Part shown: piece after piece, positions 6,796 to 7,793 of the stretch | How the letters are laid out: every line of letters begins with the position of its first letter | How positions within the stretch are numbered: the stretch's first letter is position 1 | Virus record (IMG/VR): IMGVR_UViG_3300017783_000006 | Location: 1 to 64,000 of that record | From: a virus | Reading direction: 5' to 3' (one strand) | Length of the DNA stretch: 64,000 nt | The notes under the pieces: generated by a model | Database searches by the model: none | Told to the model about the DNA's origin: nothing | Seen by the model: the letters and a program-made list of their open reading frames with translations, nothing else | Translations under genes and position numbers: made by a program

Positions 6796-6837
6796 AAATT
6801 TATAAACTATATATTAACTTCGATTATTTATGAAAAT

Positions 6838-7100
6838 AGAGGGCATTACACCCCCCAAGGGTTATTGGATTAGAAGGATAACCTATCCCCCATCTCCCAT
6901 TTAGGCAGTCGCAAGTGTGCGAGTGCGGGAGAATGCAACGATATTATTCGCTGCGGAATCAGATGTGTTTGCATCTATGGTTTTGTTCCGTCAACAATTA
7001 CAACCTTTTTGCCCTGTCGAAACCATGGCACCCCCATGAATGGAGGTGAGGAGAATCGAACTCCTGTCCAGAACAACAGACTTTGCAACCTCTTGAACAC
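6838..7100 (-). ncRNA. ssrA: circularly permuted two-piece tmRNA
   Basis: T-arm and 3' acceptor GGACAGGAGTTCGATTCTCCTCACCTCCA, spacer TTCAT, then 5' end GGGGGTGCCATGGTTTCGAC; G3-U70 pair; tag frame 6972-6901 reads ANTSDSAANNIVAFSRTRTLATA*. Confidence 0.93.
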
Positions 7101-7108
7101 TGTATATA

Positions 7109-7705
7109 TTAGCATATTTTTTCCTCAAGGCAAGTCCAAATTATTTTCTTCGTACCAGATGTTACTTTTGTCCCTTTATGTATTGTTCTCATATCACAGG
7201 GAAATACCAAAACACTTCCCTTTTTGGGTTTAACTTTTACTTTATCATTCAAAAATAGTGTTGCACCACCATCAAAATCATCATTTAAATATATGATTAT
7301 AGAAAGTACGAAATTTCCATTTTTTGATGAGTCTATATGCCAATTATAATAATCATTTTCATCATAAAATCTATAGATTAATTTCATATTATAATCTTTA
7401 GATTTACTAGAAAACATATTTGAATACTTATTTACTAATATATTATCATCATAATAGTTGGTTATAGATTTGGAAATTAATGCACTTGCTTCCATATCTA
7501 CTATTTTTACAAATTTATATTCATTAGATAACTCTGTTATATTAAATGCAATATTATTTCTAACTTTATTTTTACCACTAGACTTGTTATTAGAAATAAT
7601 ACTATTTTTTTCCTTCTCAATCAGTTCTATGAATTGATCGCAGATTTCATCATCAACAAAATTTTCATATTCGTAAATGAAATTATTATGTTTAATTAAT
7701 TTCAT
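7109..7705 (-). CDS. 2OG-Fe(II) oxygenase, prolyl-4-hydroxylase-like
   Basis: WHID...IYLNDDFDGGATLF...HKG...GTK; start revised to MKLIKH because the track start lies inside tRNA-Ala. Confidence 0.88.
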   Translation of the reverse strand: MKLIKHNNFIYEYENFVDDEICDQFIELIEKEKNSIISNNKSSGKNKVRNNIAFNITELSNEYKFVKIVDMEASALISKSITNYYDDNILVNKYSNMFSSKSKDYNMKLIYRFYDENDYYNWHIDSSKNGNFVLSIIIYLNDDFDGGATLFLNDKVKVKPKKGSVLVFPCDMRTIHKGTKVTSGTKKIIWTCLEEKIC

Positions 7706-7720: not shown

Positions 7721-7793
7721 TGGAGAATAGGAGACTCGAACTCCTGACTTCAACCTTGCAAAGGTTGCACTCTACCAACTGAGTTAATTCCCC
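7721..7793 (-). tRNA. tRNA-Ala (TGC)
   Basis: GGGGAAT...ATTCTCCA; anticodon arm CAACC-TTTGCAA-GGTTG; G3-U70. Confidence 0.95.

Follow-up and report, generated by a model that had tools for sequence, protein, structure and literature searches.

The window analyzed here, the first 64 kb (64,000 nucleotides) of a 78.8-kb IMG/VR virus record (IMGVR_UViG_3300017783_000006) with an estimated completeness of ~40%, represents part of a T4-like cyanomyovirus genome; its DNA has matches in hundreds of Synechococcus and Prochlorococcus myovirus records, including the CpeT, PurS, glutaredoxin, and tRNA regions. ARAGORN identifies 11 tRNA genes in the window. Between positions 2996 and 10267, on the minus strand, at least four 2OG-Fe(II) oxygenase-like genes are interleaved with eight tRNA genes and with the gene that is the subject of this study, a transfer-messenger RNA (tmRNA, ssrA). 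The neighbors of the tmRNA gene are 2OG-Fe(II) oxygenase paralogues, tRNAs, and small ORFs, all encoded on the same strand, and 2OG/JmjC genes are likewise paired with the tmRNA in phage Sf-FS3. An original prediction, made from the sequence of the window alone, had placed the tmRNA next to a tRNA-Ala; this tRNA (7721-7793) is in fact separated from it by ~600 nt on the upstream side, an interval that holds a 2OG-Fe(II) oxygenase gene.

The cyanobacterial tmRNA model RF01851 (cyano_tmRNA) matches the minus strand at 6839-7115 over its full length (model positions 1-288), with a score of 123.3 bits against a gathering score of 70 (E = 6e-33), and the general permuted-tmRNA model RF04321 scores 85.5 bits (vs. 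47). ARAGORN calls a permuted tmRNA with a 23-codon tag at 6810-7130. The minimum free energy (MFE) of the predicted fold has a z-score of -4.24, and none of 200 shuffled sequences folds equally well. Covariance models, ARAGORN, and covariation (below) support the identification of this feature as a phage-encoded, circularly permuted tmRNA with the alanine identity pair and without an encoded CCA, in agreement with the two-piece permuted form that had been predicted. A spurious ORF of 46 aa overlies the gene (6975-7115, minus strand). Within the window, no riboswitch exceeds the Rfam thresholds.

The permutation, also flagged by ARAGORN, is apparent in the order of the parts: the acceptor 3' strand (ending at 7041) precedes the 5' strand (starting at 7035), with a 5-nt spacer, UUCAU (7036-7040), between them. 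The acceptor piece (7041-7097, minus strand, as are all of the parts below) comprises, in the Rfam alignment, a short leader, the 5' strands of helix P2 (7090-7069), the T-arm AGGAG/CUCCU (7065-7049), the acceptor 3' strand CACCUCC (7048-7042), and the discriminator A at 7041. Its 5' end would fall near 7097, as judged from the promoter-like element upstream. Cleavage of the precursor into its two pieces presumably eliminates the spacer; spacers are 5-7 nt long in the phage copies and 5-6 nt in Prochlorococcus hosts, and because such short spacers occur in Prochlorococcus genes, the 5-nt spacer is natural and presents no obstacle. The start of the coding piece (6996-7035) holds the acceptor 5' strand GGGGGUG (7035-7029), in which G3 pairs with U70, directly followed by the D-loop analogue with the motif GGUUUCGAC (7028-7017), and then by the P2 3' strands (7016-6996). 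The features of a tRNA-Ala-like domain are thus all present: a 7-bp acceptor stem with G3-U70, the discriminator A, and a T-arm with a GUUCGAnUC loop. The P2 pairings drawn by the Rfam model (CAGGGCAA with UUGUUCUG, and UUGU..AUU with GGU.GCAA) are those that had been read from the letters alone, and the inverted order of the ends, the spacer, G3-U70, and the lack of an encoded CCA were all found at the minus-strand coordinates originally given for them.

The tag reading frame called by ARAGORN (6901-6972) consists of 23 codons and a UAA stop codon (6903-6901), with the predicted translation ANTSDSA-ANNIVAFSR-TRTLATA. A phage-specific, in-frame insert of about 21 nt (roughly 6967-6947) follows the first two codons in the alignment. 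The predicted MFE fold includes a hairpin at the resume codon (6960-6977), formed by UAGAUG (6977-6972) and CAUCUG (6965-6960) around the loop CAAACA, and the Rfam structure places a second hairpin, UCGCA/UGCGA (6909-6922), just before the stop codon. Downstream of the tag lie a covarying pseudoknot (6860-6891) with two stems, GGGGGA (6891-6886)/UCCUUC (6878-6873) and the loop sequence GGUUA (6883-6879)/UAACC (6864-6860), and a terminal G+C-rich hairpin followed by UUUU (6833-6857), which is the last helix of RF01851; both had been anticipated in the original prediction.

Based on sequence context, we conclude that the first GCA (6972-6970) is the probable resume codon, because its distance from the preceding small hairpin equals that of the host resume codon and because the upstream context is kept: an A occurs at -4 in every phage and host copy examined, and the window has U-A-G at -5 to -3, which is the arrangement in Escherichia coli too. 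A second Ala codon (GCG at 6951) was considered as resume codon and rejected, as it has no A at -4; the first GCA, instead, aligns with the host resume position.

Evidence for coding comes from the variation in the tag frame among 52 distinct phage copies. Third codon positions vary freely (AAT/AAC 27/25, GTA/GTT 32/19, ATC/ATT 38/13) within a conserved core, ANNIVAFSR, whose Ser is specified by both TCN and AGC and whose Arg is specified by both CGY and AGR; the variation within these nine codons is almost all synonymous, and the tag is therefore probably translated. Differences in the length of the tag region (15, 18, 21, and 24 nt) are multiples of three, which preserves the frame up to the conserved stop codon that follows the tag-end hairpin.

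A promoter-like element, recognized by its conservation in relatives, extends from 7133 to 7106 and combines an extended -10 (TGC plus TAATAT, 7114-7106, with TAATAT at 7111-7106) with a weak -35 (TTGCCT, 7133-7128) across a 16-nt spacer. The upstream 2OG oxygenase ORF runs into the -10, where its stop codon (7111-7109) is located. In S-CAM1, S-CAM3, the IMG/VR loci L012, L013, L054, and L097, and the second phage clade described below, the same place is occupied by TTGACA, 17 nt, and TA(A/C)TAT; the window keeps the -10 half only, and its -35 is degraded. The element, which may function as a promoter, is absent from a generic promoter scan because it matches at only 8/12 positions. Where relatives have the canonical TTGACA, the window has the 3' end of the oxygenase ORF, and this replacement points to a recombination breakpoint immediately before the tmRNA gene. 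Since the promoter-like -10 sits at 7111-7106, the gene reaches a little past 7100, the upper limit of the predicted extent (6838-7100), with the promoter-like element continuing to about 7133. At the other end, a terminator scan finds three overlapping sites at the terminal hairpin (0.6 expected), and this hairpin is thus both the last tmRNA helix and an intrinsic-terminator-like site. Given that the putative promoter is of the sigma-70 type, early expression of the phage tmRNA is plausible.

Profile searches for SmpB (PF01668), the CCA-adding enzyme (PF01743), and ClpP (PF00574) detected these families in control genomes and found none of them in the 78.8-kb record or in the complete genomes of the tmRNA-bearing cyanophages S-CAM1, S-CAM3, Sf-FS3, and S-SSM7. 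The processing, CCA addition, charging, and delivery of the tmRNA, and any proteolysis of its products, therefore need host factors, in keeping with the earlier expectation of a phage tmRNA that uses host SmpB. The absence of smpB from the phage leaves the membership of the tmRNA in its RNA family unaffected.

Structural conservation was assessed on a MAFFT alignment of the 52 distinct phage copies, using the structure of the Rfam alignment with the extra helices added. Overall, 79.5% of the cells are paired vs. 71.6% in shuffled alignments and at most 55% with slid partners, and the covariation score is 0.287 vs. 0.170 in shuffles and at most 0.141 with slid partners; for neither measure do any of 500 shuffles reach the observed value. 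The acceptor stem is fully paired in 52/52 copies with G3-U70 invariant throughout, and its pair 5:68 occurs in four types (C-G, U-A, A-U, and G-C). The T-arm is likewise 100% paired, with changes on both sides at four of its five pairs. For the inner P2 helix, pairing amounts to 92.7%, and 6/10 pairs show compensation. The motif GG(U/C)UUCGAC is invariant across the phage copies. Stem 1 of the pseudoknot is paired in 86% of cells, and the tag-end hairpin in 65% over the 52 copies, partly because of the alignment; in the latter, the nearest relative of the window copy (L097) has UCGCG/CGCGA, a compensatory change. The poor pairing of pseudoknot stem 2 in the MAFFT alignment (39%) was discounted as an alignment artifact, since direct parsing with a pattern that fitted 22 of the 52 copies finds at least five contiguous pairs in all 22, in 11 sequence combinations. 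Some phage tmRNA lineages (L025, L028, L055, L070, L039, L078, and L095) have neither the 3' pseudoknot nor the terminal hairpin, and a tRNA gene follows almost directly after their tag region; in such lineages, tRNA processing would set the 3' end of the coding piece.

Homologues of the window tmRNA were found by BLAST in 18 phage records. The most similar, in S-CAM1 and S-CAM3, are 91-92% identical, with flanks that are not alignable; AG-345-P14 and Sf-FS3 follow at 78-79%, and S-SSM7 and S-SSM6a, as well as S-CRM01, at 74%. All six homologues that were fetched pass RF01851 and are called as permuted by ARAGORN, and wherever annotation exists, they lie in or beside a tRNA cluster. Several hundred cyanophage records share other DNA of the window vs. 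the 18 with a homologue of the tmRNA, and the gene is therefore dispensable for the group. As the original prediction had supposed, annotation misses the gene: over the fetched homologues, GenBank shows nothing or a spurious 'hypothetical protein', such as those in S-CAM3 (T040910_205) and S-SSM7 (SSSM7_025), at L003:3002-3142 and L006:2986-3204. On the practical side, several GenBank cyanophage records thus carry spurious protein calls over a tmRNA. In S-CAM1, a wcaG RNA motif (RF01761, 83.5 bits; L002:5609-5705) lies ~2.3 kb downstream of the tmRNA, beside a tRNA-Gly.

A wider survey used a pattern for the permuted junction (T-loop, acceptor 3' strand, 2-30 nt spacer, acceptor 5' strand, and GGYUUCGAC), which matched 90 IMG/VR stretches and at least 120 genome contigs. 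The genome matches listed are almost all from Synechococcus, Prochlorococcus, or Cyanobium, consistent with the use of the permuted form by marine picocyanobacteria on which the prediction had drawn. ARAGORN calls permuted tmRNAs with a cyanobacterial-type tag at 72 of the viral loci, each on an IMG/VR contig, and at 109 host loci among the matches listed. Six further permuted tmRNAs from IMG/VR (L014, L060, L036, L037, L077, and L094) are of non-cyanobacterial types, with tags ending in AAAA, QMAA/QLAA, or ALAA, and one of these types has a 29-nt spacer. Standard-order 'tmRNA' calls by ARAGORN in L005 (2613-3030), L040, and L050 were rejected as false positives that overlap three tRNAs (annotated in L005).

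We analyzed the phylogeny of 166 unique sequences with FastTree, rooting the tree on a few betaproteobacterial-type matches. The 105 host sequences (among the matches listed) form a clade without a viral member, with weak support (0.64). The window copy falls within a clade of 41 unique viral sequences (support 0.993) that has no host member among the matches listed; its closest relative is the IMG/VR locus L097, followed by S-CAM1 and S-CAM3. A second viral clade, containing S-CRM01 and others, branches separately. By this phylogeny, the window tmRNA belongs to a phage-specific lineage and is not a recent capture.

Phage and host tmRNAs differ most clearly in the tag, which was compared between the 72 viral loci from IMG/VR and the 109 host loci among the matches listed, the latter being a sample. 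All 109 host tags among the matches listed end in PVAA vs. 5/72 phage tags, and these host loci encode 13 variants of AN[NK]IV[RSA]FSRQxAPVAA vs. 27 distinct tags among the 72 phage loci. The other phage tags end in TVAA, LATA, TALV, AVAV, LATV, LVTA, and similar sequences, and phage tag ends consist throughout of small, non-polar residues (A, V, L, and T). The tag of the window is a unique variant of the LATA group (TRTLATA), and its nearest relative, L097, has TRELATA. Whether host proteases would recognize a tag that lacks the invariant PVAA end of the host is uncertain. In addition, a seven-codon extension ahead of ANNIV, the result of the 21-nt in-frame insert, occurs in 47/72 phage loci and in 0/109 host loci among the matches listed, giving a tag of 23 residues vs. 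16 in the host.

The insert also bears on the RNA structure around the resume codon. In host tmRNAs, positions +1 to +6 pair with +13 to +18 in a 6-bp hairpin with a 6-nt loop, fully paired in 95 of the 105 unique host sequences (L098-L217, among the matches listed). A compensatory switch between GCG with CGU and GCU with AGU within this hairpin would explain why residue 6 of the host tag alternates between Arg and Ser. The host-type pairing of +1 to +6 is lost in insert-bearing phages because codon 6 is GCA. Instead, all 36 unique insert-bearing phage copies have a hairpin of 4-6 bp between -5 to +1 and +8 to +13, with a loop of usually 6 nt, in three compensatory variants (UAGAUG/CAUCUG, UAUCUG/CAGAUA, and CAGAUG/CAUCUG). 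The insert re-forms the hairpin at the resume codon in a shifted register. The residues encoded in the insert vary (TSD, TDT, SSD, and DID) while the RNA pairing is kept, and the insert therefore seems to be selected as an RNA structure whose length is divisible by three.

We consider it likely, with a probability of roughly 0.8, that the window tmRNA is a functional ssrA gene of a lytic T4-like cyanomyovirus and would work through host SmpB. Host RNA polymerase would transcribe a single precursor from the sigma-70-type promoter to the terminator hairpin, probably early in infection. Host RNase P would then cut before G1 (7035), the 5-nt trailer after the discriminator A (7041) would be trimmed, and a host enzyme would add CCA, yielding two pieces of about 60 and about 200 nt held together by helix P2. 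Once charged by host AlaRS via G3-U70, the tmRNA would be brought by host SmpB and EF-Tu to ribosomes stalled on broken mRNAs, where translation would resume at GCA (6972) and append the 23-residue tag with its LATA end. The phage would most likely benefit through sustained ribosome recycling while host mRNA is degraded and transcription of host ssrA falls, a benefit that would parallel that of the phage's own 11 tRNA genes in the window. Counter-defense and a takeover of ribosome rescue, the roles offered in the original prediction, find no support in this analysis and are speculative.

A functional tmRNA could also have been selected for its re-designed tag and not for extra rescue capacity. 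The seven-residue N-terminal extension and the non-host C-terminus would then send tagged proteins down a route other than that of host-tagged ones (degradation at a lower or higher rate, or by another protease), and the new resume hairpin could tune the timing of tmRNA use. The near-absence of PVAA in phages, the larger number of distinct phage tags than host tags, and the phage extension, each relative to the host matches listed, are in line with this, as are the persistence of the LATA-type end over several divergent sublineages and the retention of pairing in the insert though its amino acids vary. However, the phage tag ends are small and non-polar, like ordinary ssrA degrons, and their variety could equally mean relaxed constraint; moreover, the host end is retained in some phage copies (L009, L026, and L051), and the record and the four complete genomes encode no phage ClpP. 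We regard selection on the tag, in place of rescue, as a rather doubtful account of the gene as a whole, and the narrower proposal that the altered tag has a selected role of its own as possible, if tentative.

Two further readings would deny the gene its ordinary function. One is that the tmRNA acts mainly as a decoy that titrates host SmpB or blocks host trans-translation, a role that has been proposed for the tmRNA of mycobacteriophage DS6A, which consists only of the tRNA-like domain (TLD) (PMC4131195). A phage without SmpB must compete for that of its host, and the resume codon is partly sequestered in a hairpin, which could fit such a role; nevertheless, this codon lies in a hairpin in host tmRNAs too, and the mRNA-like domain is complete, with its stop codon, the A at -4, indels that preserve the frame, and variation of the synonymous type, none of which a decoy would need. 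The synonymous variation of the core and the in-frame indels point to a functional messenger domain and argue against a pure SmpB decoy, which we judge improbable. The other is that the gene is a mere passenger: a recently captured host ssrA, a functionless attachment-site remnant, or an assembly chimera. Although integration at ssrA is common and fragments of ssrA are frequent in prophages (PMC9004378), the gene described here is full length, is flanked by phage genes and tRNAs, and belongs to a well-supported clade that is purely viral with respect to the host matches listed and has phage-specific features; structure-preserving changes have accumulated within phages, and the gene is present in complete genomes of cultured lytic isolates. 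This is the least probable of the explanations, and we give it very little weight.

Within the preferred reading of a functional phage ssrA gene, it is conceivable, though far from assured, that a cyanomyovirus lineage has re-engineered the messenger part of its tmRNA by gaining the insert, forming the resume hairpin in a new register, and moving the tag end off PVAA. If true, rescued proteins would bear a virus-specified tag with a different proteolytic fate or timing, which would amount to viral reprogramming of protein quality control rather than the carriage of a spare part. Annotation of phage-borne tmRNAs is rare, and experiments on them are very few. Since selection clearly acts on the gene in a lineage made up of phages alone, trans-translation appears to matter in cyanophage infection, and the hosts are some of the ocean's main primary producers. 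The contrast in tags poses a testable question, namely whether the virus tops up ribosome rescue or alters the fate of rescued proteins, and the cultured carriers S-CAM1 and S-CAM3, on Synechococcus WH7803, make this question experimentally tractable.

Phage-borne ssrA genes have been described previously: the list of Hudson et al. (2014; PMC4131195) was confined to mycobacteriophages and Bacillus phage G, and a two-piece tmRNA in the OM43 phage Melnitz was described by Buchholz et al. (2022; PMC9004378). In an ARAGORN screen of 18,146 phage genomes, the latter authors found a tmRNA in 402 phages and counted 53 unique two-piece forms, of which 50 were marine or aquatic; as roles, they proposed either upkeep of the translation machinery that the phage has hijacked or the use of tags to recycle amino acids. 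The novelty implied in the original prediction is not borne out, as S-CAM1, S-CAM3, S-SSM7, S-CRM01, and AG-345-P14 are already given as 'Permuted' in Table S1 of that study, along with S-CBWM1 (PMC9004378). The permuted cyanophage tmRNA is thus on record for sister phages, and the window adds another copy. What goes beyond the earlier listing is the phage-only lineage, the diversification of its tags vs. the invariant host tag, and an in-frame insert that rebuilds the resume hairpin. A literature search, with subscription journals mostly outside its coverage, found no paper on the tags or structure of cyanophage tmRNAs, and the host-phage tag contrast seems to be unreported in the literature searched.

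The closest known systems are the RF01851 tmRNAs of Synechococcus, Prochlorococcus, and Cyanobium, which share with the phage copies the permuted order, the TLD, the P2 helices, the core tag ANNIV.FSR, the tag-end hairpin, the pseudoknot, the terminal hairpin, the lack of an encoded CCA, and short spacers. They differ from the phage clade, which has the 21-nt insert after codon 2, the longer tag of 23 residues instead of 16, and the -5 to +1/+8 to +13 hairpin in place of the host one (+1 to +6/+13 to +18), and from the window in particular, where LATA stands at the end of the tag instead of PVAA. The upstream hairpin of the Rfam model is also absent, with the promoter-like element in its place. 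Direct homologues, 74-92% identical, are the tmRNAs of S-CAM1, S-CAM3, Sf-FS3, S-SSM7, S-CRM01, and AG-345-P14, of which all but Sf-FS3 are named as 'Permuted' in the published table (PMC9004378), and all but S-CRM01 are among those with the insert. In comparison with these cyanomyovirus homologues, the window copy has lost the canonical -35 and an abutting tRNA-Arg. Melnitz and the pelagimyophages are likewise lytic marine myoviruses that carry a complete permuted ssrA without smpB (PMC9004378), but their tmRNAs are of the alphaproteobacterial type, and that of Melnitz is linked to a glutamine riboswitch. Finally, the ssrA genes of Bxz1-like mycobacteriophages, Bacillus phage G, and DS6A (PMC4131195) depend on host SmpB, as here, whereas the tmRNAs of Bxz1-like phages and phage G are one-piece molecules in the standard order, that of DS6A is restricted to the TLD and has no tag frame, and all of these phages infect hosts of different phyla.
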